The position numbers and the translations under genes are program-made. Shown piece by piece: positions 7,403 through 46,959 of a stretch of 64,000 nucleotides of DNA (within the stretch, counting starts at the first letter, position 1; each line of letters starts with the position of its first letter). Source of the stretch: a virus (Duplodnaviria; Heunggongvirae; Uroviricota; Caudoviricetes); the IMG/VR virus record IMGVR_UViG_3300028840_000472; one strand, 5' to 3'. The notes under the pieces were generated by a model. The model was given only the letters and a program-made list of their open reading frames with translations. It was not told where the DNA came from and did no database searches.

Positions 7403-7741
7403 CTATTCCGTGCGCAAGCGCAGGTTCAGTGTCGGCCCCGTATCGTCGTCGTCGTTCGTCGGCGGATCTTCGGCGCGCAGCTTCGGTGTCGTGTACTGCG
7501 CGATCTCGCTGTGTGCCTTCATGCGCAGGTTCAGGGGAATGTTCTGTGTGTTCGCCAGCTTCGCCAGCTCGACCAGCGGATGATAGTCATCCGGGACGCC
7601 GTCGTCGGCCCGCATCAGTTCCAGCAGGTCCGCCCGTTCCCGGTCCATTTGCCGGCGTTGCGTGCCCGGACGCGGCGTCTTGATCGGTTCACCGACCCGC
7701 AGCGCCGGTGCTTTCGAGGATGTCAGCGGTCCGTCGTCCAT
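7403..7741 (-). CDS. terS: Putative terminase small subunit (112 aa)
   Basis: Stop abuts the terL start; basic N-terminal half and acidic C-terminus; preceded by a sigma70-like TTGCCG-17-TATATT promoter. Confidence 0.4.
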   Translation of the reverse strand: MDDGPLTSSKAPALRVGEPIKTPRPGTQRRQMDRERADLLELMRADDGVPDDYHPLVELAKLANTQNIPLNLRMKAHSEIAQYTTPKLRAEDPPTNDDDDTGPTLNLRLRTE

Positions 7742-7869
7742 GTGCGGGCAATATAGCGGGGTGTCGCAGTGTCGGCAAGTACCGGGATCACAGTGCGGGA
7801 ATTTCTGACGGCGGCACGCGGCCAGCGGGGATGCGGACGCGAATCGTTCGTATTTACATCATCATCCAG

Positions 7870-8210
7870 AAGTGTCGTCGCGCGTACGCGCGCGCGCATA
7901 TATGGGCAAAGTTTTTTTTCGACCCTTCAAAAAAATAGGCGCACCACCCCCTTTTATATACGAATCAATAACCTGCAGCAAAGGTAGCAGTGAGGTAGCA
8001 CCTGTGCAGCGCTGTAAGTCCCTGTTTTACAACGGAAGGTAGCACGGAATCACAGGTAGCACAGAAAAAACGTGATTTTCGAAATTAAAAAATTTTCCCC
8101 ATATAGCAAGTGATTCACACAAAAAAATAAAGGTTAACTTGTTGAATTTTAAGCAAAAAAAAGGTAGCGACCATGGTGCTACCACGGTGCTACCTTTGCT
8201 ACCTTGTGAG
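7870..8210. repeat. Iteron-like GGTAGCA(C) array with AT-rich spacer and an alternating (CG)n(TA)n tract; copy A of a roughly 200-bp duplicated non-coding element
   Basis: GGTAGCA copies at about 7983, 7994, 8038, 8055 and 8163, with inverted GTGCTACC copies at about 8176, 8187 and 8197. A roughly 100-bp AT-rich tract lies between the two repeat sets. The 26-nt alternating Pu/Py stretch cgcgcgtacgcgcgcgcgcatatat is at about 7876-7901. The segment is homologous to 45345..45545. Confidence 0.6.
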
Positions 8211-8367
8211 GGAAATCAATAACTTGCGACTGTGCGTCGTGTTACCCGATTGAATTACTTCATCTTTTTCCCTTGTAGCCAGTTTACGGAGATAAGAACC
8301 AATGAAAACAGCGCAACGGAAACCTGTCGAGGGGAATCCCCACAGCGCTGCACAGCAGCCTATACGA

Positions 8368-9109: not shown

Positions 9110-9415
9110 TCATTTACACCACAGCCCCGCGCGTGTCGCGACGCACGTGATGTTCGGGAATTCGGTATGCTTGATGATCCAGATCGGCCCGTCTTCGGTG
9201 TCGTAGCGGTGCACGTCGCCGGGGAATGGCTGTCCCTGTACCACGGGATCCGGCCCCGGTCGTGCCTTCTCGCTGTACTCGCGTTCTGCCGGCCTGTCGT
9301 CGCCTATCAGGCGTTTTTCCACGACAGTGCACGACTTGCCCACGACCGCCGCCAGAATGCCCAGAATGGACACCACGATGACCAGTTCGATGATCGTGAA
9401 GCCCTTCACTTGCAT
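9110..9415 (-). CDS. Type IV prepilin-like / pseudopilin-like protein (101 aa)
   Basis: N-terminus MQVK-G-FTIIELVIVVSILGILAAVV matches the class III (prepilin peptidase) signal: short basic leader, Gly at -1, Phe at +1, Glu at +5 and a hydrophobic helix. C-terminal CVATRAGLWCK gives a disulfide-loop-like pair. Confidence 0.6.
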   Translation of the reverse strand: MQVKGFTIIELVIVVSILGILAAVVGKSCTVVEKRLIGDDRPAEREYSEKARPGPDPVVQGQPFPGDVHRYDTEDGPIWIIKHTEFPNITCVATRAGLWCK

Positions 9416-13074: not shown

Positions 13075-14046
13075 CTAGCGCGAGATCTTGAACGCGTTTT
13101 CGAGTACGCCGTTCAGATCCATAAGTGAATTCGTTCCCGGTGCACCTGTCGGCACGCCGTAGACCTTGACGTTCGGTCCAAGGTTCTGCGCCCATTCGAT
13201 CGCGGCGACGTACTGCGCGCCCGGTCCTGTGTACGCGTTCGTCAACAGACGCGCGCCTTCGGCTTCTGCAGACTTCACCGCCAGAATGCCCTTCGCGATT
13301 TCTTCCTGCTTCAGTCGTTCGCCTTCACCTTCCAGCCGGCGTTTCTCGCGTTCTGCTTCGGCTTCCTTGATGCGCTTCTGTTTCTCGCCTTCGGCGATGT
13401 TCGCGATCTTGACGGCGGTATTCTCCGCCGCTTCCGCCTTGCGTTCTTCGATGATCACCTTCTGCGCGGCCATGGCTTTTTCTTCCAGTGTCGCAACGAA
13501 CTGCGCATTCGTGAAATCGATGTCGCGCAGGTTGACGGTAATCAGGAAGCCGCGTTCCTTCAGCTTGTTGTCGAGTATGGTTTGAATCGCCTGCTGTACG
13601 CCTTCACGCCCTTCGCTGGTGTAGATTTCATCCGACAGCTTCGACGGCACCTTGTCGCGTATCGCGCTGCGCAGTGCAGGGAACACGACTTCTTCCCAGT
13701 AGTCCGGCCCGATGTTTTCGTGGATCCACGGCACGCGATCAGGCTGCAGTCCCATTTCCAGCGACACGTCGATCAGTACCGGCTGACCGTCTTTCGTTTG
13801 TGTCTCGACGTCTTTCAGCACGTACTGGCGAAAGCGTACATCGTAGATCGGCACATCGTACGTGACCGGATTGATCCAGTGCAGACCGGTGTCCAGTGTG
13901 TCGTCCTGCATTCCCTGCCCGATGCCGATCTTCTTCACTTTCAAACCGGTTTCACCCGGATCGATGTCGGTCAGTCCGAACACAAAGAACAACGCCAGTA
14001 TTGAAACAAGACCGACGCCAGCGCTTAAAGATATTATGTTCCGCAT
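13075..14046 (-). CDS. SPFH / band-7 (stomatin/prohibitin/HflC-like) membrane protein
   Basis: N-terminal transmembrane segment, then an SPFH core (DVPIYDVRFRQYVL...TKDGQPVLIDVSLE...LSDEIYTSEGREGVQQAIQTILDNKLKERGFLITVNLRDIDF) and a C-terminal EA-rich coiled coil. Start set at the internal ATG (TAATG overlap). Confidence 0.75.
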   Translation of the reverse strand: MRNIISLSAGVGLVSILALFFVFGLTDIDPGETGLKVKKIGIGQGMQDDTLDTGLHWINPVTYDVPIYDVRFRQYVLKDVETQTKDGQPVLIDVSLEMGLQPDRVPWIHENIGPDYWEEVVFPALRSAIRDKVPSKLSDEIYTSEGREGVQQAIQTILDNKLKERGFLITVNLRDIDFTNAQFVATLEEKAMAAQKVIIEERKAEAAENTAVKIANIAEGEKQKRIKEAEAEREKRRLEGEGERLKQEEIAKGILAVKSAEAEGARLLTNAYTGPGAQYVAAIEWAQNLGPNVKVYGVPTGAPGTNSLMDLNGVLENAFKISR

Positions 14047-14276
14047 TAGTTGTTCCCCTGCATCTGGTTTGTTTTCGCGACTTGTGAGTACAACCAGTAC
14101 ACGCCGCATTGTGTACAGTACAAACGCTTCCCGTCGCTGACGATGCCGTGATCAGCGTCGATCGGACATTCATACATTTCTTCGTACCACAAAGATTCCT
14201 GCATACTCTGCGGATGAAGATCTTCTGTTTCGCCCTGCGATTCTGGCGGTAACATTATCGTCGACTTATTTGTCAT
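14046..14276 (-). CDS. Small zinc-ribbon-like protein (CPID...CTQC)
   Basis: ORF track. Confidence 0.4.
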   Translation of the reverse strand: MTNKSTIMLPPESQGETEDLHPQSMQESLWYEEMYECPIDADHGIVSDGKRLYCTQCGVYWLYSQVAKTNQMQGNN

Positions 14277-17680: not shown

Positions 17681-17943
17681 CTTCGTGTCCTCTAGCTGTT
17701 AATGAACTGCAGCGTCATTGATACGCTACAATTACATTATAACAAACGCACTTTTGCGAAATCGCACGAAACCCCTATTTTTATAGCATTTCGTGATCTA
17801 AGCCGTTGACTTATAAGACGCGAAAAAACACTTGACACCTATTTTTATAGGACGAAATGCACGTCTACGCCGTCAATTTGATCATAGCGTAAACAGAAAT
17901 TGCATATAAAACAACGACCAAAAAAATTAAAAAAATTATTTTT
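17681..17943. promoter_or_regulatory. AT-rich intergenic control region with two CCTATTTTTATAG palindromic boxes and an extended -10 promoter
   Basis: Two CCTATTTTTATAG copies about 50 bp apart. Each is adjacent to GCATTTCGTG or its complement, so the pair forms a dyad (cacgaaa...tttcgtg). The minus strand carries TGTTATAAT, a TGnTATAAT extended -10. This is the longest AT-rich gap in the early operon. Confidence 0.45.
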
Positions 17944-18267
17944 CTACTCTTCATGATGTTCCTTCACGAAGTCCTTTACCAGCCACTTCGCGAACGCTTC
18001 GGCGAGTACGTCACTGCTTATCGTGCCGACCTTCATGTTCGCGTCGCCCGTCGCGTTAACGTTAATTACAAGCACCGACAGGTCGCGCATAACGACGACA
18101 ACGTTCGCGCCCCACTCGCCGACTTCCTGCGACTTGATCAACGCGTTTTCGTCGTCGTGTATCTGGTGCATGATTTCGCCCATTGCATGTTCGATCGGAT
18201 GTTCGTCATTGTCATCCGGTAGCACGGCGATCATGTTTCGATATTTATTCGCTAGTTCCAGTGTCAT
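17944..18267 (-). CDS. Hypothetical acidic protein (107 aa)
   Basis: ORF track. Confidence 0.45.
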   Translation of the reverse strand: MTLELANKYRNMIAVLPDDNDEHPIEHAMGEIMHQIHDDENALIKSQEVGEWGANVVVVMRDLSVLVINVNATGDANMKVGTISSDVLAEAFAKWLVKDFVKEHHEE

Positions 18268-26564: not shown

Positions 26565-27260
26565 CTACAGTATAACATCGACCAGTGAGGACGCGCCAGA
26601 CTCCGCTACAGCGTTCAGCAGGGCAGACAGGTATTCGGCGTCCGGGTGCGCGTCGCGCGGCGGATACAGCGCTTTAGCGGGCGTCAGAAGCCAGCGAATG
26701 AAGTGCAGCTTCAGCAGGTCCGGTACGTCGTGCATTCCAATCATGTCCAGCTGCAGCGCTGACAGGATCGCGTGTTCCAGCCCGAAGAACATGATTTCCT
26801 TGATCGTGTTTTCGCTGGTGTAAACCTCGATGTCATGTATCAGCCGATCATTCAGCAACAAGCCGTCGTTTGCGACATACATCAGATCGCAGAACGCGCC
26901 CCGGATTGTGTCGCGCGGCTGTTCCTCGAAGATCTGCACCTTGCCGAATCCGTCGAACTTGGAATACGTGGTATTGAACGCGTCTATTTTTGCGCGATCC
27001 TTTTCGACCACGTTCACCGACTTGACGTCCGGCTTCTCCGCGATCGACGCCGTCAGGTAGCCGTTACCGATGCCAGCGATCACGACGTGCCCCGTTGCAA
27101 GATACACAGGCAGCGCCGCCGCCTGTACTGTCTCCGGTGCCAGCGTAAGATCGCCGAAGTGCACTTCGCGCCCGATCCAGTATGTCGCCCCGTACGCGTT
27201 AGGAAAACCGCTGTATCGTTCTTCCAGCTGCGCCAGCGCGCGTTCTTCAGCCGGCTGCAC
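26565..27260 (-). CDS. Putative class I SAM-dependent methyltransferase-like protein (231 aa)
   Basis: Rossmann-type motif VVIAGIGNGYL followed by an acidic residue after the next strand (VNVVEKD). No DPPY/NPPY motif, so probably not a DNA amino-methyltransferase. Confidence 0.35.
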   Translation of the reverse strand: MQPAEERALAQLEERYSGFPNAYGATYWIGREVHFGDLTLAPETVQAAALPVYLATGHVVIAGIGNGYLTASIAEKPDVKSVNVVEKDRAKIDAFNTTYSKFDGFGKVQIFEEQPRDTIRGAFCDLMYVANDGLLLNDRLIHDIEVYTSENTIKEIMFFGLEHAILSALQLDMIGMHDVPDLLKLHFIRWLLTPAKALYPPRDAHPDAEYLSALLNAVAESGASSLVDVIL

Positions 27261-27603
27261 GTTGTGCAGCCTTGGCTTCGATAAACTTCAGGTAGTCGTC
27301 AGCGTTTGCGCGCCCGTGTTCCATCTTGATGACGTGGTAGCGTGAACAGCGAAACTCTTTCGCCGCCTTTTCCATAGACAGGTTGATGCGTCGGCGAAGA
27401 ATCGTCGCGCGCTCGCCGGCTTTCAGGTTGCGCACGTAGCGAAACTGTCGCGCTACTTGTTTCGGCGGTTCGATCACGTCACTTTCCCAGCGCGACACAA
27501 GTGTCTGTGTCACGTTGTGCGACTTGGCGAAGTCGTCCTGCGTCATGTCTTCACGACGCCGCCCGATCATGATCTTCTCGCCTGTTGTTAGCTTGATCTG
27601 CAT
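27247..27603 (-). CDS. XRE-family (Cro/CI-type) transcriptional regulator with two HTH units
   Basis: MIGRRREDMTQDDFAKSHNVTQTLVSRWES and LSMEKAAKEFRCSRYHVIKMEHGR are both HTH_XRE-like. Confidence 0.55.
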   Translation of the reverse strand: MQIKLTTGEKIMIGRRREDMTQDDFAKSHNVTQTLVSRWESDVIEPPKQVARQFRYVRNLKAGERATILRRRINLSMEKAAKEFRCSRYHVIKMEHGRANADDYLKFIEAKAAQRAAG

Positions 27604-36496: not shown

Positions 36497-37963
36497 TCAA
36501 ATGTCGTAGTATTCATTCCCGATCGGATCCAGCACGAACAGGTTGTGACGTGCGCGCGTCAGCCCCGTGTAGAAGACGCGATGCTCGTCGTCCGGTGACA
36601 GGTCATAACTTTGACGCGTTCGATATGTGATGTCAGTACACAGTACGACGTTGTCTGCTTCGCCGCCCTTCACGCTGTGAATCGTCCCGGTGTAGATGCG
36701 CGGTTCGTCCGTTAGCTTTTCACCGTTGCGCAGTATCGACTGGTAATACTGTCGCGTCGCGTCGCCGATCGTCAGCAGCTGGTCGTACCACGGCAGTTCG
36801 AAGTTCACACCGAAGCGCTTCACGTCGTCGCGTGTAACGTGTTCGTCGTCTTCCACATGCAGGTCGATGCGGTTGTGTCCAAGGTAGCCGTTAACGTGTT
36901 CCAGTGCGTGCCCTGTGATGCCTTCGCCCTTGCGCAGTGCTTCGTATAAAATTATCGCGCGCACTTCGTCTTCGTCGACCGACGACTTTCGCGTCGTCTT
37001 GTACGCGTAGCCAAGCAGTTCGATCTGGTGCCTGAAGTCCTGCAGGAAGTGATGCGAGCGCGCGAGAAACATCCACGTCCCGTTCGCAAGATCGAACTCT
37101 TCGTCGACCGTCGCGCGTATCACGTTGCCTTCGTGCCCTGCCGACTGCCAGTTCTTCGCGTAGCGACGTCCAATGCGTTGCGACACTTCGTTCGCCATGT
37201 CGAAGATCGGACCGGGCAAGCGGTAACTGACCGGCAACACTTCCGGCGCGTCGCTGATCTGCAGGAAGTGATTCACGTCAGCGCCTGACCAGCGGTAGAT
37301 CGCCTGATCGTCGTCGCCTGCGACATAGATTTCAGGGACGTTGCGGAACATGTGCTGCGCGACCTGCCACTGCTTCACCGACAGATCCTGCGCTTCGTCA
37401 ATGATCACGACGTCGAGATCAAGCGGTTCGCAGTTGTCGACGAAACGGTCCAGCATGTCGTCGAAGTCCAGCTTGAACATGTCGCGCTTGTAGTGCTTCA
37501 GGGAATCCGCGAAGTATTTCAGCGCGTGCCACTCCACGCCTTCCCCTGTCGCGTGCCACGCTTCTTCCAGCGACGTGCATGTCGCCCGTGCATAGCTGAC
37601 GATCTGCAGCATCTTGGACCCGTCAGCGCCTGCAGGGATCGGTCCTTCGGCATCCGTGAATGAATTGAACCCCATCCCGACAAGGTTGCCGAAGTCGCGG
37701 TAGTCGCGGTTCCCCATGACTTCGCTTTTCGTTACGTTCGCGTGCGCGTACGCGATAGAATGCAGCGTCCTGAAGTATGGCAGCTGGCTGCGGTCGAAAT
37801 CGAAACGCTTCGCCGCGCGTTCCGCTGCTTCGTTTGCAGCCTTGCGTGTGAATGACACGAACGCGATACGCGACGGATCGATACCGCTGGCGATCTCTTC
37901 TTCAACGATCGACAGCAGCCGCGTCGTCTTGCCGGTCCCCGGTCCGCCCAGTATAAGCCGCAT
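36497..37963 (-). CDS. Superfamily 1 DNA helicase (UvrD/Rep-like)
   Basis: Walker A LILGGPGTGKTT, motif II VVIIDEAQDLS, C-terminal FYTGLTRARHNLFVLD (UvrD_C_2-like). Start overlaps the primase stop. Confidence 0.7.
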   Translation of the reverse strand: MRLILGGPGTGKTTRLLSIVEEEIASGIDPSRIAFVSFTRKAANEAAERAAKRFDFDRSQLPYFRTLHSIAYAHANVTKSEVMGNRDYRDFGNLVGMGFNSFTDAEGPIPAGADGSKMLQIVSYARATCTSLEEAWHATGEGVEWHALKYFADSLKHYKRDMFKLDFDDMLDRFVDNCEPLDLDVVIIDEAQDLSVKQWQVAQHMFRNVPEIYVAGDDDQAIYRWSGADVNHFLQISDAPEVLPVSYRLPGPIFDMANEVSQRIGRRYAKNWQSAGHEGNVIRATVDEEFDLANGTWMFLARSHHFLQDFRHQIELLGYAYKTTRKSSVDEDEVRAIILYEALRKGEGITGHALEHVNGYLGHNRIDLHVEDDEHVTRDDVKRFGVNFELPWYDQLLTIGDATRQYYQSILRNGEKLTDEPRIYTGTIHSVKGGEADNVVLCTDITYRTRQSYDLSPDDEHRVFYTGLTRARHNLFVLDPIGNEYYDI

Positions 37964-39492
37964 CAGAACGCGGTTTCCGGTAGCCTTGCAGGGTCGTGAT
38001 CGCCGTCCTGCGTTACGAATTCAGGTACGGACCAGCAGCGAACGTTCTTGCCCTTCGCCTTGAACTGTCTGTTCGTGATCGATGTCCGTTCCTGAAGTAC
38101 GCCGAAGATCTGGTTATCCTTCAACGTTCGGAACTGTTGCTGGTGCAGGTACTTCTTGAAGTCGACGCCACGGAACAGGGTGCGACCTTCTTCTGTCCAT
38201 GGCTTGCCCATCAGGATTTCTTCGCGAACGCGTGCCTGTGCGCGTGTCGTGCAAAACTGTTCGAGGTGGTACATTAACTGGCCGGCTGGACTGGCGTCGT
38301 CAGGCGCTTCGATTATGTTTACTTTTTTCAGAAGCCCCTGAATTAGATTTGTCCACGCCTTGTTCCCGATCTTGTGCGGCAATTCGTTCAGCTTTTCCAT
38401 GCAGCGCTTGCCTAGTAACGCTTGCGACATTAGTTCTTCGGTCTGTAGTTGAATGCGAACCCCGTTGATCGTCACGATCCACAACGGCGGGTCGGTGATA
38501 ATCTTGTCGAGTGCGTCGATCATGATACCGGGATCGGTAGGTTCGCCGCCGCCGATACCGAACTGTCGCTGTTTGCATATCGACTTGTTGCAGTAATTAC
38601 ATATAGGGGAAACTTCGCACCGGTAAAAATAGTCTTTCTTGCTTAGTGTTTTTTCGATCGTTGCGACTTCGTTATACGGCAACGGTTCGGACATGTACTT
38701 GTTGTTGTACTCGTTCAGCAGTTCCTGCCAGTCGCCATCCGGTCGAACCAGATGTGCATATACGCCCATGTTGAACAGCGTTTCATTGCGCCCGCCTTCC
38801 GGGACGCCTTTCTTTGCGAGTGCTTGAAGGCACGGCGGTCCGTCAGGGAATGGCGCGTCGGGATCCGCTTCGACTTTTATCGCGCTGATCGCGTCCGGTG
38901 TCAGCGCTTTCGCTTCGCAGTAGTCTAGGAATTCATTGACGTCGTAGATCGGTTTGCCGTTCTGCATACCGTAGCGCACGGTACGTTCCGCGTCGAAGTA
39001 CGGCATGTTCAACCAGTTCCCGACGTCGCCGTCGTCAATGGTTGATTGCTTCGGGAATATTTCCGATCCTTGGAAATCTAGGTTATCGCACAGGATACCC
39101 AGCGCGCGACGCATTTCGCTCGCCGGCACAGGTTCCGTCGTGAACAGGAAAAGGTGCGCGCCGCCTGACTTGCTGCGACATGCGACAAGCGGACTTTTTC
39201 GTTCGTGCAGTACACGGCTAATATGCGCAGGATCGAAGTCGCGGTATTCATCGATGTCGATGCTGCCCCACGTGCACATATCGTCGCCCATTATGGGAAC
39301 GATGCCGATGCCTGTTTCGCCCTTCAGGTGCGCGGTAACTTCCTTGACGCCCCAGCTATCCTGACGCGTCATCGCCTGCCCTTCGGCCTTCCCCTTCGAA
39401 CTTGTCTTGCCTGTTAGCTTGTATGTGCCATACGCACGATCCAGCCCCCTAAAAATACGAATAAATCTTTCCGCAGTTTGTTCGATGCCCAT
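37963..39492 (-). CDS. DNA primase-polymerase (AEP/PrimPol N-terminal domain plus PriCT-1-like C-terminal domain)
   Basis: GIGIVPIMGDDMCTWGSIDIDEY (DxD) and SKSGGAHLFLF (sGG.H.h) prim-pol motifs; GGRNETLFNMGVYAHL PriCT-1-like motif. Confidence 0.65.
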   Translation of the reverse strand: MGIEQTAERFIRIFRGLDRAYGTYKLTGKTSSKGKAEGQAMTRQDSWGVKEVTAHLKGETGIGIVPIMGDDMCTWGSIDIDEYRDFDPAHISRVLHERKSPLVACRSKSGGAHLFLFTTEPVPASEMRRALGILCDNLDFQGSEIFPKQSTIDDGDVGNWLNMPYFDAERTVRYGMQNGKPIYDVNEFLDYCEAKALTPDAISAIKVEADPDAPFPDGPPCLQALAKKGVPEGGRNETLFNMGVYAHLVRPDGDWQELLNEYNNKYMSEPLPYNEVATIEKTLSKKDYFYRCEVSPICNYCNKSICKQRQFGIGGGEPTDPGIMIDALDKIITDPPLWIVTINGVRIQLQTEELMSQALLGKRCMEKLNELPHKIGNKAWTNLIQGLLKKVNIIEAPDDASPAGQLMYHLEQFCTTRAQARVREEILMGKPWTEEGRTLFRGVDFKKYLHQQQFRTLKDNQIFGVLQERTSITNRQFKAKGKNVRCWSVPEFVTQDGDHDPARLPETAF

Positions 39493-43075: not shown

Positions 43076-43140
43076 CGTAACCCGTATTATAGAAACCGTA
43101 GGACGTTACGACAAAACTTTAGAACTTAGAGGACACGACA

Positions 43141-43434
43141 ATGACCGACACAATCAAGACAGGCGACAAGGTTCGCAGCTTCGACTTCGCAGACGGTGAT
43201 TGGGGTCGCTGGTTGATCGGCGAACACGAACGCGCCGCCTACGTCGAAGGCGAAGTCGTCGAGATCTTCGAACACATACACGGCTATCAGTCGTACCGTA
43301 TCAAGGTCACGAAGGACGTCTTCGGCAACGTAGACCAGACCGACAAAGGCTACAGGACTGAAGTCGTCGTACCGGTCAACGGAACACCGAAGGGTTTCGG
43401 CGACGAAGTCTGCGACGGCGTTGAAAAGATTTAA
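43141..43434 (+). CDS. Hypothetical early protein (97 aa)
   Basis: ORF track; conserved leader. Confidence 0.5.
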   Translation: MTDTIKTGDKVRSFDFADGDWGRWLIGEHERAAYVEGEVVEIFEHIHGYQSYRIKVTKDVFGNVDQTDKGYRTEVVVPVNGTPKGFGDEVCDGVEKI

Positions 43435-43455
43435 TCAACCATAGAGGACACGACC

Positions 43456-43767
43456 ATGAACTACTTAAACGACAAAATTGAACTGACAATCGACAGCGTT
43501 GAATACCATCGTAACGGCATCGGCGGCGAAGGTTTCTACGCGATGCGTCTGGAACTTCTCGACAAGTATGAACCCGGCACAACGAAGACGTTGATCGTCA
43601 CCATCGAAGCCGACGAAGATGACCCGGACAACAAGCTGAACTACAGAAGCTGCCGCGTGATCAATCCGTTCGACGTGACTGACAAGTATCGCGGCGACAT
43701 AATCGGCGACCTGCTTGCCGCTAACGCGAAGGATATATTCAACGCGTACAGCGACGGGGGTGCGTAA
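43456..43767 (+). CDS. Hypothetical early protein (103 aa)
   Basis: ORF track; GAGGACACGACCATG leader. Confidence 0.5.
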   Translation: MNYLNDKIELTIDSVEYHRNGIGGEGFYAMRLELLDKYEPGTTKTLIVTIEADEDDPDNKLNYRSCRVINPFDVTDKYRGDIIGDLLAANAKDIFNAYSDGGA

Positions 43768-43979
43768 TGTTCAAGGTAGTGACAACCTATCGCGACGGAT
43801 TCATCGAAGACGCCGCCTACGCGTCCGCGATGAAATCATTCACGACACTGAACGCGGCGATCCGTTTTGCGGACGACGAAGCCGGCTGGGAATCCTGCGC
43901 GACAGTTAACGTCTACGACGGCGACCGCTGCGTGTACTCCCTGAACGGGACGTTCGCATGGCTGGATAAATCCGACTAA
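43767..43979 (+). CDS. Hypothetical early protein (70 aa)
   Basis: ORF track; TAATG coupling. Confidence 0.45.
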   Translation: MFKVVTTYRDGFIEDAAYASAMKSFTTLNAAIRFADDEAGWESCATVNVYDGDRCVYSLNGTFAWLDKSD

Positions 43980-43998
43980 AATTTTTTTGCTAAAGGTG

Positions 43999-44011
43999 TT
44001 GACATATATGC
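43999..44011 (+). promoter_or_regulatory. Conserved early promoter TTGACATATATGC (copy 11), -10 TATAGT
   Basis: 13-mer plus 65-nt leader. Confidence 0.6.
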
Positions 44012-44063
44012 CGATAGCCCTTATAGTGAACACACACTGCAACGAAATTTAGAGGACACGACA

Positions 44064-44237
44064 ATGACGAACACCCAGATCGCAGAGCAGATCGAAGCCG
44101 CCAAGTACCGCCAGCTTGTACTTAACTGCCACAAGCGCGGCATGTCGATCGCTGAATCCGTCCGCATCCGCATCGCGATTTCGCTTGATTTCTGCCGGGA
44201 TTCCGCTGAAGATCCGCGCGCCGGGGAGATCTACTAA
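44064..44237 (+). CDS. Hypothetical early protein (57 aa; below the ORF-track length cut-off)
   Basis: ATG after GAGGACACGACA; translation MTNTQIAEQIEAAKYRQLVLNCHKRGMSIAESVRIRIAISLDFCRDSAEDPRAGEIY. Confidence 0.45.
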   Translation: MTNTQIAEQIEAAKYRQLVLNCHKRGMSIAESVRIRIAISLDFCRDSAEDPRAGEIY

Positions 44238-44255
44238 ATTTTTTACCGCAGGGGG

Positions 44256-44268
44256 TTGACATTTATGC
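44256..44268 (+). promoter_or_regulatory. Conserved early promoter TTGACATTTATGC (copy 12), -10 CATAAT (spacer 18)
   Basis: 13-mer plus 66-nt leader ending in GGGACACGACAATG. Confidence 0.6.
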
Positions 44269-44321
44269 CCGACCCCCTGCATAATGAACCTACACTGAAC
44301 GAACACACAAGGGACACGACA

Positions 44322-44483
44322 ATGACGAACAAAGAGATCAACGCCAAGATTCAGGAAGGCAACGCCCACAAGGCAGCAGGTCGTTACGAAGAAGCTGCCA
44401 TGGCATACGAAGAAGTCTACGCGATCACCCGCGACAACATCTTCCGCCGTTGGGGTGCCGAAATGTGGCACAAGGTTCAGTAA
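44322..44483 (+). CDS. Hypothetical early protein (53 aa)
   Basis: Internal ATG of track ORF 44256..44483, positioned by the conserved leader. Confidence 0.45.
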   Translation: MTNKEINAKIQEGNAHKAAGRYEEAAMAYEEVYAITRDNIFRRWGAEMWHKVQ

Positions 44484-44510
44484 TCCACCGCAACCATAGA
44501 GGACACGACA

Positions 44511-44840
44511 ATGGCACGAAACGAATTCAAACAGGACAAGTTCAGGGTCGAAAATCCCTTCGGCAACCCGAAGGACTACAATCAGCACCTGCTGAACAAG
44601 CTGACCCACGCGCACGGCTTCGTTATGGAACACGTGCTGGACGATGACCGGGAAGAACAGAACAGCCGCTACGCCGGCGCTGCACTCGCCCGCGAAGTGA
44701 TCGGTCGGGAAGTGGTACAGGCTGCGGTCGACTTCAACAAGTGGGAAGCTGCGCAGCATACCTGCGGCCCCGCTGCCGGTGATCAGAAAGGCCGGCTTGA
44801 ACTCTTCCGCAACCGCCGCGCGGCAAGGAACGCGGCCTGA
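44511..44840 (+). CDS. Hypothetical early protein (109 aa)
   Basis: ORF track; GAGGACACGACAATG leader. Confidence 0.45.
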   Translation: MARNEFKQDKFRVENPFGNPKDYNQHLLNKLTHAHGFVMEHVLDDDREEQNSRYAGAALAREVIGREVVQAAVDFNKWEAAQHTCGPAAGDQKGRLELFRNRRAARNAA

Positions 44841-44874
44841 TCTTCGGATCAGGTCGCCCATAGATGACACGACA

Positions 44875-45252
44875 ATGAAAGAATTAAAACTAGGGGATGT
44901 CGTCGTAGTGTTCCGCCGAATCGGCGGTAACTACCTGACAGAGATCACCGGCGAAACGAAGACACTGTGGAAAACGGACGACGGTTCGCGCTGGGTCAAG
45001 CGAACAGGGTATGAGTACGGCACGTCGTCAAGCTGGTCGGGACGCACGATCGACAAGGCATCGCAGGAAGACGTCGAACGCCTGCTGCGCAAAAAGTATC
45101 GCGACGATCTGGTGCACAAGCTGCGGACCCTGAAGTGGGACGTGTTCAACCGACAGGAACTGGACGTGATATACGCCGCGCTGCAGAAGGCACTGGACAT
45201 GCGCGCAGCGCGCAAGGAACAGGAAATTAAACGCGGGACGAAAGGCCCGTAA
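44875..45252 (+). CDS. Hypothetical early protein (125 aa)
   Basis: Internal ATG of track ORF 44779..45252 with an AGATGACACGACAATG leader. Confidence 0.5.
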   Translation: MKELKLGDVVVVFRRIGGNYLTEITGETKTLWKTDDGSRWVKRTGYEYGTSSSWSGRTIDKASQEDVERLLRKKYRDDLVHKLRTLKWDVFNRQELDVIYAALQKALDMRAARKEQEIKRGTKGP

Positions 45253-45299
45253 ACAGCACAGGAGTCGTGTCCTGTCGCGGGGGTGGTGCCCCGCACCCG

Positions 45300-45332
45300 G
45301 AAGGCCGGCAGCGATGTCGGCCTTTCTTTTTG
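45300..45332 (+). terminator. Rho-independent terminator closing the rightward early operon
   Basis: GC-rich hairpin GGCCGGCAGCGATGTCGGCC followed by TTTCTTTTT. Confidence 0.5.
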
Positions 45333-45344
45333 TCGCAATTCGCG

Positions 45345-45545
45345 CCCGCGCACGCGCGCGCATATATAGGGGAAATTTTTTTCAAGGTCAAGAAAAAACT
45401 TTGGCCCGACCCCCATTTATATACCAGACCCCAAAAGGTAGCAGCGGGTAGCAGCAAACTGCCAAAAGGTAGCACCTGCGATCGCTTGTAAGTATCTTGA
45501 TTCGTAACGAAAGGTAGCACGGAATCACAGGTAGCACCGAAAAAA
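45345..45545. repeat. Copy B of the duplicated GGTAGCA(C) iteron-like element
   Basis: GGTAGCA at about 45437, 45447, 45468, 45513 and 45530. The block aaggtagcacggaatcacaggtagcac is identical to copy A. An alternating cgcgcacgcgcgcgcatatata tract and a TTTATATAC box are shared with 7870..8210. Confidence 0.6.
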
Positions 45546-45607
45546 TTTTCGGCCTTTGACATTTAGGAAAAATTTTCTCCATGGGACGCGGGACGCGCGG
45601 GACGCCC

Positions 45608-45620
45608 GCATGAATGTCAA
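45608..45620 (-). promoter_or_regulatory. Orphan promoter-like TTGACATTCATGC (minus strand) pointing into repeat copy B
   Basis: One mismatch to the conserved early -35 block. No conserved leader or ORF follows. GGGACGCG x3 lies directly upstream. Confidence 0.3.
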
Positions 45621-45767
45621 ACCTGCGCAGGGTCGTGCGCGTATATGGTTCCACTCTCGCGCCCTGTGGCGGACGCTACCGATCAAAACCCCGTCAGGGC
45701 ACGCAACCATACCAGCCAGCACCCGATCGCCGCCCGTAGCCCCTCACAGGCGGCGACAGGCACCTGT

Positions 45768-46391
45768 TCAGACGTGTGAAATGATGAAATCCCACCATGC
45801 GGCATTTTTCTTGTGCGCCCATGCACTGTGCCCGCTGACTTTGGGTAGCTCCCCTGCTGCTACCTTGATGCTGTCGACGTCGGTCGCATACTGCACGACC
45901 CGGTCGTCTGTCCCGGCGAATCCGGTGTTCCCCATTTCGCCCCAGTGGTGCTTCTGCTGCCAGCGCCACGGCAAGACACCCGTGACCCGCCGCCAGTGCT
46001 TGCCGGCAACCGTCGCCAGATCCCCGGCGTTATGGAACACCGCCCAGCGTTCGACACTGGCCGGCGGCTTCCACTTCTTCGCCAGCGCCGGCTGTATCAG
46101 GACAATGCGCCGCACCGGCGCGCCCAGCCGGCACAGATGCGCGATCAACGCCGCGCCGTTCGAGAAGCCGACCAGCGTGTCGCCCATGCCGACCGACGGA
46201 AGGATCAGCCGCGCAAGGTTTGAATTGTTGCGCGTTGCGACAAGATCCCAGTGACCGTAGTCATGCACGCGACAGATGTGCCCCGCCTTTTCTATCGCGT
46301 CGCGAAGGACAGCGATCTTCGGTTCGCCGACCTTGTGCCGTTCGTTGAAGCCGTGAATAAGATGTACCGTCTTCATGTCGTTATGCCTCAT
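45768..46391 (-). CDS. Alpha/beta-hydrolase-fold serine hydrolase (esterase/lipase-like)
   Basis: HGFN oxyanion-hole-like motif near the N-terminus and GFSNGA (GxSxG nucleophile elbow); 207 aa. Last gene of the late operon, next to the lysis genes. Confidence 0.55.
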   Translation of the reverse strand: MRHNDMKTVHLIHGFNERHKVGEPKIAVLRDAIEKAGHICRVHDYGHWDLVATRNNSNLARLILPSVGMGDTLVGFSNGAALIAHLCRLGAPVRRIVLIQPALAKKWKPPASVERWAVFHNAGDLATVAGKHWRRVTGVLPWRWQQKHHWGEMGNTGFAGTDDRVVQYATDVDSIKVAAGELPKVSGHSAWAHKKNAAWWDFIISHV

Positions 46392-46959
46392 ATCGTCGTC
46401 GTATGGTTTCCAGCACTTCCAGCTTGATCTGACAGATCCGGCCTTCCGACTTGCCGCAGAAGTTCCCGATCTCTTTCAGCGTGTACCCCTCGAAGAACAA
46501 CAGGCGCAACAGCGCGCGCTGCCATTCGGGTAGTTCCCTTGTTATATTCTCGAAGTCAATCCGCAAGTCTTCCGTCTTGGTAAAGTCCGGCGTCGGCGGA
46601 ACCATTTCGTCGCTTGTGAATAATATGTCGCGTTCGGATCTTTCCCGAACAAAGTCGATCGCTGCACCGCGCACGCGCGCGTAACTGAAGCAGCGAATGT
46701 CGACGTCGTCAGCATCCAGATTTCGCTGCAGATACTTCCTGTAGCATTTCAGAAATGCCATCCGCGATTCCTGTATCGCGTCGTCTTTCTTTGCGTCGAT
46801 TACGTTTGCCGGGAAGATTTTTATCGCGCGCATGGCGACTGCCTGAATCCAGCTGTCGAACTCGCGCAGCATTTCGCATTCGCTCTTCCTGTGTGATGTA
46901 TCGTTCGTCGGGCCAGTTGAGAAGCCGTCGCCCACAGCACGGACACTTGTCGTCGTCAT
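46381..46959 (-). CDS. Phage-encoded ECF-type sigma-70 family factor
   Basis: Region 2-like AIQESRMAFLKCYRKY...FSYARVRGAAIDFVRE. Region 4 HTH LPEWQRALLRLLFFEGYTLKEIGNFCGKSEGRICQIKLEVLETIRRRY. Confidence 0.75.
   Translation of the reverse strand: MTTTSVRAVGDGFSTGPTNDTSHRKSECEMLREFDSWIQAVAMRAIKIFPANVIDAKKDDAIQESRMAFLKCYRKYLQRNLDADDVDIRCFSYARVRGAAIDFVRERSERDILFTSDEMVPPTPDFTKTEDLRIDFENITRELPEWQRALLRLLFFEGYTLKEIGNFCGKSEGRICQIKLEVLETIRRRYEA

Follow-up and report, generated by a model that had tools for sequence, protein, structure and literature searches.

What is the function of a long non-coding stretch that lies where the early and late genes of an uncultivated phage meet? The stretch belongs to a metagenomic phage contig of about 88,079 bp (ENA ERZ27256798, k141_2638583). 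A 64-kb part of this contig, the window, was analysed, and with two overlapping loci of the same record (L002 and L005, exact overlap) the examined sequence amounts to 82.3 kb of the ~88-kb genome. An initial annotation had described the stretch as a second copy (copy B) of a GGTAGCA repeat element (copy A) and had suggested a non-coding RNA, a second origin or terminus, or a regulator-binding insulator between convergent operons as its role. No genes are called on the source contig in 45253-45767, in agreement with that description. A close cultured phage was not found: DNA searches gave no match and the proteins were less than 60% identical. The DNA of the B region matched none of 50,697 phage records, and no exact 25-mer of it occurred in IMG/VR.

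The late operon starts with a 112-aa TerS-like gene, continues through TerL and portal genes past the left window boundary, reappears at the right one (circular map) and proceeds through the tape measure, tail and lysis genes to a sigma70_r4 protein gene and, finally, a 207-aa hydrolase-like gene (Table 1). The early/replication operon encodes an SNF2 helicase, Pam3_gp32- and gp34-like proteins, an AEP primase, a UvrD-like helicase, DUF932 and PolA, and a small early-right operon is read in the opposite direction. In this gene map, copy A (7879-8235) separates the last gene of the early operon from the first gene of the late operon, and copy B (45341-45665) lies in the gap where the late and early-right operons both end. 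Thus, the convergence of early and late transcription at copy B and the terminator that closes the early-right operon, both proposed earlier, were confirmed. The two intervals are the largest non-coding stretches observed. Since the genome is ~88 kb, the window holds just a part of the late region that is bracketed by A and B. GC and AT skew tracked gene orientation alone and was uninformative on origins.

Some further features of the map were noted. A near-identical translation-start context, TAGAGGACACGACAATG, precedes more than 15 early genes (43123-44885 on the plus strand and 9014-30748 on the minus strand). The early region encodes, on the minus strand, a prepilin-type N-methylation-motif protein, an SPFH/Band-7 protein and an HTH_3 protein (9110-9415, 13075-14109 and 27247-27603, respectively), the last of which is the sole clear small DNA-binding candidate found. 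Outside the window, MptE-like, NAD-epimerase and methyltransferase genes in the late region (L002:1174-6998) suggest sugar modification of virion proteins or DNA.

The window contains 19 copies of GGTAGCA where 3.9 would be expected, and 19 was reached in 0 of 100 shuffles. Twelve of the copies form two clusters, with four direct and three inverted repeats at 7983-8203 and five direct repeats at 45437-45536; there is no third cluster across the 82.3 kb of the ~88-kb genome. In blastn, 45353-45545 of copy B aligned with 7889-8070 of copy A at 73.4% identity over 199 columns (E 1e-19), and the mean column identity in a MAFFT alignment was 80%. The related parts extend over 45341-45590 and 7879-8095 and are 73-80% identical, so that copy B is a true second iteron element with about the 75% identity first estimated. 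As had also been described, the copies are direct repeats around the early region; they lie 37.3 kb apart. Their longest exact stretch is the 27-bp core AAGGTAGCACGGAATCACAGGTAGCAC. All five B iterons are exact, and the spacers have diverged.

Table 1. Positions of genes, elements and motifs in the window
Feature	Position	Strand	Remark
Genes and operons
TerS-like gene, 112 aa	7741-7403	-	late operon start
TerL	7402-5960	-	Terminase_6N type, T4-like
Portal	5920-4424	-	late operon then leaves window at left end
Tape measure	59846-56109	-	followed by tail genes and lysis genes
sigma70_r4 protein, 192 aa	46959-46381	-	late operon
Alpha/beta-hydrolase-like gene, 207 aa	46391-45768	-	last late gene; anchor for B-type elements in relatives
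Early/replication operon, 34 kb	42944 to 8368	-	
Early-right operon, small	43141-45252	+	closed by terminator at 45299-45326
Early-promoter motif TTGACATTTATGC(C)	9065, 20706, 21118, 21361, 25854, 26466, 30259, 30781	-	
Early-promoter motif TTGACATTTATGC(C)	43063, 43999, 44256	+	
Copy A and its flank
Sigma-70-like TTGCCG-17-TATATT	7750..7778	-	weak; 100 bp beyond A, outside the repeated part
CG/TA tract	7879..7907		
Four direct GGTAGCA	7983, 7994, 8038, 8055 (7983..8061)	+	
AT-rich spacer	8063..8162		76% AT; most AT-rich 100 bp of window (44% overall)
Degenerate GGTAGCG	8163	-	
Three inverted GGTAGCA	8177, 8188, 8197 (8163..8203)	-	
IHF-consensus-like AATCAATAACTTG	8214..8226	+	
Copy B and its flanks
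Intrinsic terminator of early-right operon	45299..45336	+	12-pair stem (45299-45326), then T-run
CG/TA tract 1, cgcgcccgcgcaCGCGCGCGCATATATAgggg	45341..45372		
T-run/A-run inverted repeat, then CCCCCATTTATATAC block	45373..45424		
Five exact GGTAGCA iterons	45437, 45447, 45468, 45513, 45530 (45437..45536)	+	
GGAATCA	45521		non-exact repeat among the iterons
AT-rich spacer with palindrome CCGAAAAAATTTTCGG	45537..45582		~61-65% AT, about 45 bp
-35-like TTGACATTTAGGA	45556-45568	+	inside spacer; no -10 element
GGGACGC x3	45583, 45590, 45599 (45583..45605)		
TTGACATTCATGC	45608..45620	-	-35-like box only; inside lineage-specific insertion
CG/TA tract 2, GTGCGCGTATATGGTTCCACTCTCGCGCC	45635..45663		B-type; kept in L171, L176
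GC-rich hairpin	45727..45756	-	directly after stop codon of last late gene; no U-run

Both elements are about 300 bp long, and they share one order of blocks: a (CG)n(TA)n tract with GGG, a T-run/A-run inverted repeat, CCCCC-TTTATATAC, four or five iterons, and AAAATTTTC(C/T)CCAT. The (CG)n(TA)nGGG block is also found in the related contigs L006, L008, L009, L178, L171 and L176, and the CCCCC-TTTAT block is kept in A and in the B-type elements of relatives. Beyond the shared part, copy A continues with the most AT-rich 100 bp of the window, a candidate unwinding element by its composition, and with three inverted iterons and an IHF-consensus-like site. The IHF consensus is WATCAANNNNTTR; a second IHF-like site with one mismatch lies at 7963-7975, and L008 and L006 have similar sites at the aligned position. 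The second most AT-rich part of the window (17811-17972, 69-73% AT) is an intergenic gap in the early operon and has no iterons.

Copy B continues with a much shorter AT-rich spacer, GGGACGC x3, a lineage-specific insertion and the second CG/TA tract, GCGCGTATATGGTTCC. The threefold repeat had been listed as a feature in its own right. It is present; however, it is not separate from the array, since it aligns with the inverted-iteron triplet of relatives (GTGATGCGC x3 in L176 and GTGATACC x2 in L171). TTGACATTCATGC on the minus strand and TTGACATTTAGGA on the plus strand form an inverted repeat, and a GATCGCC...CACAGGCGG block at the hairpin behind the last late gene is conserved.

On the other side of copy A, the weak sigma-70-like sequence ends 8 nt upstream of the ATG of the TerS-like gene (7403-7741), which has no Shine-Dalgarno sequence. 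At the equivalent position of a relative (L178:265-330), TTGCCA-17-TATTCT precedes the ATG by 10 nt. The late mRNA may be leaderless. The 112-aa TerS-like protein had no match in Pfam, PHROG or PDB, profile searches included.

Elements of the A type were located in relatives by using TerL as an anchor (IMG/VR and a large protein collection), and those of the B type by using the 207-aa last late gene, for which 31 homologues were found. A-type elements with equal block order lie directly upstream of the TerS-like gene in L006 and L008 (both complete), L179, L178 and, from within the CG tract onwards, L009, and the genes on their far side vary between contigs. Their common blocks are TTTCCCC-TATAG, A8GGTA followed by inverted iterons, and the IHF-like site. 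A B-type element was found in L171, from a JGI contig of 50 kb whose replication module and convergent layout match those of this phage. L176 and L177 are without the early-right operon, and there the B-type element is located immediately upstream of the SNF2/primase replication module. Three blocks are common to the three B-type elements and absent from those of the A type: the triplet repeat, the second CG/TA tract with GGTTCC.CTCTCG behind it, and the hairpin after the stop codon. In L168-L170, only 10 bp lie between the convergent genes and there is no array, which indicates that B can be lost or is dispensable in that lineage. Absence of copy B from relatives, named in the initial annotation as an outcome that would speak against it, was therefore found in one lineage (L168), and its presence in two (L171 and L176/L177). 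No single contig of a relative was seen to carry both A and B.

Other searches extended this set little. In IMG/VR, a composite pattern (CG tract and CACGGWATC...) matched L006 and L008 only; JGI metagenomes gave just the L006 contig once more, and GTDB genomes had no match. A GGTATCAGC-pair pattern found the L171 contig and otherwise unrelated matches only. The SNF2 helicase anchor gave only ~40% relatives in IMG/VR, and a tail protein anchor gave one relative (L166), which has no iteron array in the 10 kb downstream. In this lineage, the 207-aa hydrolase-like gene has a conserved place as the last late gene. It is also present between TerL and portal genes in unrelated contigs of the P22-portal type (L172-L174:3367-3971), and this second context indicates moron-type behaviour of the gene.

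The presence of B-specific blocks in relatives implies that the split between A and B predates these phages and that both copies have been maintained. Judged by these blocks, A and B are old paralogues each of which has been kept, and the pair is neither a recent nor a decaying duplication. The initial annotation had pointed out that recombination between the copies would excise the 37 kb between them. As geometry this is true; the two-copy layout, however, appears stable in evolution. We consider it very improbable that B is a functionless or decaying duplicate, or a substrate that recombines with A to excise the early region. The direct repeats with their exact core and the lineage without B would suit this reading, but elements of the B type, with conserved blocks of their own, are retained in phages in which the neighbouring protein shows only 55-60% identity, and the iterons of B are exact in five of five despite the diverged spacers. 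In addition, all seven contigs that carry the sigma-factor gene near copy B are in the 50-200 kb class, the longest being 88,082 bp. No excision product was seen. A mobile miniature element was also considered, and was rejected because the positions are orthologous across phages.

The iterons of the relatives, A-type and B-type, are mostly GGTATCA, with the variants AGTATCA, GAATCA and GCATCAC. In this phage, the repeat is GGTAGCA in 12 of 12 cases in both copies. In the left-half core, A and B are 73% identical, and all other pairs of elements are 41-60% identical. Since the same variant occupies all 12 repeats, one sequence-specific protein probably reads both copies, its specificity having shifted; this is the simplest reading of the concerted change, which itself is directly observed. 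Alternatively, gene conversion may have matched the copies to each other. By the logic of either explanation, both copies would be functional targets. The earlier proposal of a protein-binding array at B is consistent with the five exact clustered iterons and the use of GGTAGCA throughout both copies of this phage, and the T to G change in 12 of 12 repeats provides a clean handle on the cognate binding protein.

It had also been proposed that an orphan promoter, TTGACATTCATGC, drives a minus-strand non-coding RNA through copy B. The sequence is indeed one mismatch from the repeated promoter 13-mer of this phage and resembles a -35 box. However, there is no -10 hexamer 16-18 nt from it, the expected position reading CGCGTC; a consensus promoter scan of 44700-46400 called no promoter; and the insertion in which it lies is missing from the B-type elements of L171 and L176. 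Neither did the RNA itself find support, there being no Rfam family match and fold z-scores of -1.1 (minus strand) and -2.2 (plus strand), and the conserved parts are short DNA repeats in both orientations rather than helices. The orphan promoter is thus not upheld, and of all readings considered a non-coding RNA from it appears the least probable, with hardly any chance of being correct.

The early promoters have an unusually extended motif, TTGACATTTATGC(C), preceded by an A/T tract and set at a fixed spacing, in 8 exact and about 8 near copies (Table 1); its counterpart in relatives is TTGACTTTTATGC. The motif is conserved more strongly than a -35 box would require, and may therefore be bound by a regulator. 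The sigma70_r4 protein gene, two genes from copy B, was considered in connection with the elements and with these promoters. The protein has no homologue but itself among 5.8 billion proteins, and the gene is absent from the syntenic relatives L168, L171 and L176. Relatives without the sigma gene retain the elements and the TTGAC(A/T)TTTATGC promoters, so the sigma factor is not required for the elements, and a tie to either was rejected.

What, then, might the two elements do? The suggestions of a second origin or terminus and of a regulator-binding insulator remain the leading readings of copy B. Because an array has been kept at each position in related phages, the pair is most likely a two-site origin system, and we tentatively favour, as likelier than any other single reading and still short of an even chance, the view that A and B are two conserved cis sites that would be read by one phage-encoded binder, as an origin-type pair like oriL and oriR of SPP1. 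This ranking is based on the anatomy of A, on the phage's own primase, helicases and polymerase and on the precedent of SPP1; the anatomy, the conservation at both positions and the concerted iteron change are observed, while protein binding, the identity of the binder and any replication activity are what we infer. Copy A has the complete anatomy of an iteron origin, with direct iterons, a candidate AT-rich unwinding region of ~100 bp, inverted iterons and an IHF-like bend site. Copy B has the same iterons, a ~45-bp AT-rich spacer, degenerate inverted repeats and an extra CG/TA tract. It may be a second, weaker origin, or a non-firing site at which the bound initiator would control replication. 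It could do so by looping to A, or by stalling forks and so triggering the switch to concatemer synthesis, the role proposed for oriR of SPP1.

Clustered non-coding short repeats, by which iteron origins are recognised, are present in both copies (five direct in B, four direct and three inverted in A), and the phage encodes a replication set of SNF2 helicase, AEP primase, UvrD-like helicase and PolA. A recognisable initiator (Rep, lambda-O-like or DnaA-like) was not found in Pfam scans of about 60 ORFs; the HTH_3 protein (27247-27603) and the AEP primase (37963-39492) are the only candidates. Against an origin pair, A-type elements always accompany terminase genes, which would fit a packaging site equally well, and in L168-L170 there are 10 bp where B would be.

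A packaging function is a possibility of lower rank, which we consider unlikely. The iterons would then be bound by the small terminase, A would be a pac or cos site with the cut at or near the CG/TA tract, and B would be a weaker second initiation site. The position of every A-type element directly upstream of the TerS-like and TerL genes, with varying genes on the far side, agrees with this idea, as does a TerL of the T4-like Terminase_6N type, and a headful packager could tolerate a second site. The iterons with the IHF-like site also resemble cosB of lambda. However, adjacency to the small-terminase gene holds for A and the A-type elements and not for B, which lies 37-50 kb from the terminase genes and in L176 adjoins the replication module; a conserved second copy beside that module is left unexplained. 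A pac or cos site is expected once per genome, and here there are two copies. No phage is known to us to have retained two pac or cos sites, and sub-genomic DNA would result from a second cos. The 112-aa protein is without a detectable TerS family or structure match. Some contigs stop inside or beside the elements, at L009:1-20 (the contig begins within the CG tract), L007:1-40, L178:1-260 (the contig ends within the A-type element) and L175:2565-2581, which was counted for packaging. These stops may be assembly breaks at a repeated or hard-to-sequence (CG)n(TA)n tract, or DNA ends; since their positions within the elements differ, and many contigs of the L179 phage end elsewhere, they look like assembly breakage and not a defined terminus. 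A physical genome end at the CG tract was rejected for the same variation in position.

About as doubtful is control at the operon boundaries, in which a phage protein bound to the arrays would stop or gate read-through at the early/late junctions, or activate the late promoter at A, perhaps with the assistance of the Z-DNA-prone (CG)n tract. A and B are located exactly at both early-left/late junctions, in L176 even without the early-right operon, neither long minus-strand operon has a canonical intrinsic terminator ahead of its element, and the weak sigma-70-like promoter lies 100 bp past A, just before the TerS-like gene. Nevertheless, a roadblock needs no direct and inverted repeats around an AT-rich core, there is nothing downstream of B to activate here or in L171, the L168 phage copes with 10 bp between its convergent genes, and the shared part contains no conserved terminator or promoter. 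A centromere of the parS/sopC type found no support, no ParA or ParB being detected among about 60 scanned ORFs; integrase, Rep and protelomerase families were likewise not found in these ORFs.

Origin, packaging and boundary control are not mutually exclusive. A further reading is a matched boundary pair that would couple replication to the early-to-late switch. One protein bound at both junctions would fire replication at A and stall forks or transcription at B, the Z-DNA-prone (CG)n(TA)n tracts possibly acting as supercoil-sensitive switches. We regard this coupling as improbable. If it is true, the pair would set both the mode of genome copying and the timing of genes, and an uncultivated lineage would have conserved a phage element of a new kind that organises the genome.

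Whatever their function, the elements belong to a lineage of proteobacterial-type phages that replicate with their own AEP primase and PolA and that have no cultured member. The order of (CG)n(TA)n tract, iterons, AT-rich core and inverted iterons is a signature with which origins or packaging sites of metagenomic phages can be searched for. In practice, the elements are two cis sites to retain when such genomes are engineered or rebooted.

Several known systems can be compared with the pair. The (CG)n tract of the elements, which abuts TATA(T)GGG, resembles one half of the telO core of the N15-type telomere resolution site (...TATACGCGCGTATA...). Dyad symmetry is lacking, however, as the elements contain just a half-site and are repeated in direct orientation; with no protelomerase found among the scanned ORFs, a telomere-resolution site was rejected. 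Non-coding repeat arrays lie immediately upstream of the terminase genes in cos of lambda (cosN; cosB with R sites and the IHF site I1) and in pac of SPP1. Copy A alone shares this feature, as a short-repeat array with an IHF-like site before terminase genes. The present phage differs from these in that there are two copies per genome, the CG/TA tract lies between the repeats and the terminase gene, and there is no sign of DNA ends.

A parallel exists with the satellite phage P4 (ori and crr) and with plasmid iteron origins that have a second control array (P1 incC and incA; R6K). There, a protein encoded by the replicon recognises two widely separated clusters of one short iteron, of which the second is not a complete origin. 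The alpha protein of P4 is a primase-helicase with a known iteron-binding domain; no such protein was identified here, and the clusters are 37 kb apart compared with 4.5 kb in P4. Plasmid or lysogeny genes were not detected in this phage.

[quoted passage not shown] In SPP1, oriL fires, and oriR, located in a long intergenic stretch of the late region, has been proposed to stall forks and thereby to bring about the switch from theta to concatemer replication (PMC6316719, PMC3485210). The present phage likewise has two separated, similarly organised copies per genome, one of them in a long late-region intergenic stretch. One protein binds both sites in SPP1, and the shared iteron variant points to a common binder here. 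The two systems differ in that there is no sequence or protein homology between them, and a gp38-like initiator and a DnaB-type helicase were not found here; oriL of SPP1 lies within the gene for its initiator, in contrast to the two intergenic copies of this phage at operon junctions, and the elements here add the (CG)n(TA)n tract and the inverted iterons. Should the pair function in the proposed way, the two-origin arrangement of SPP1 would have a second and independent example.
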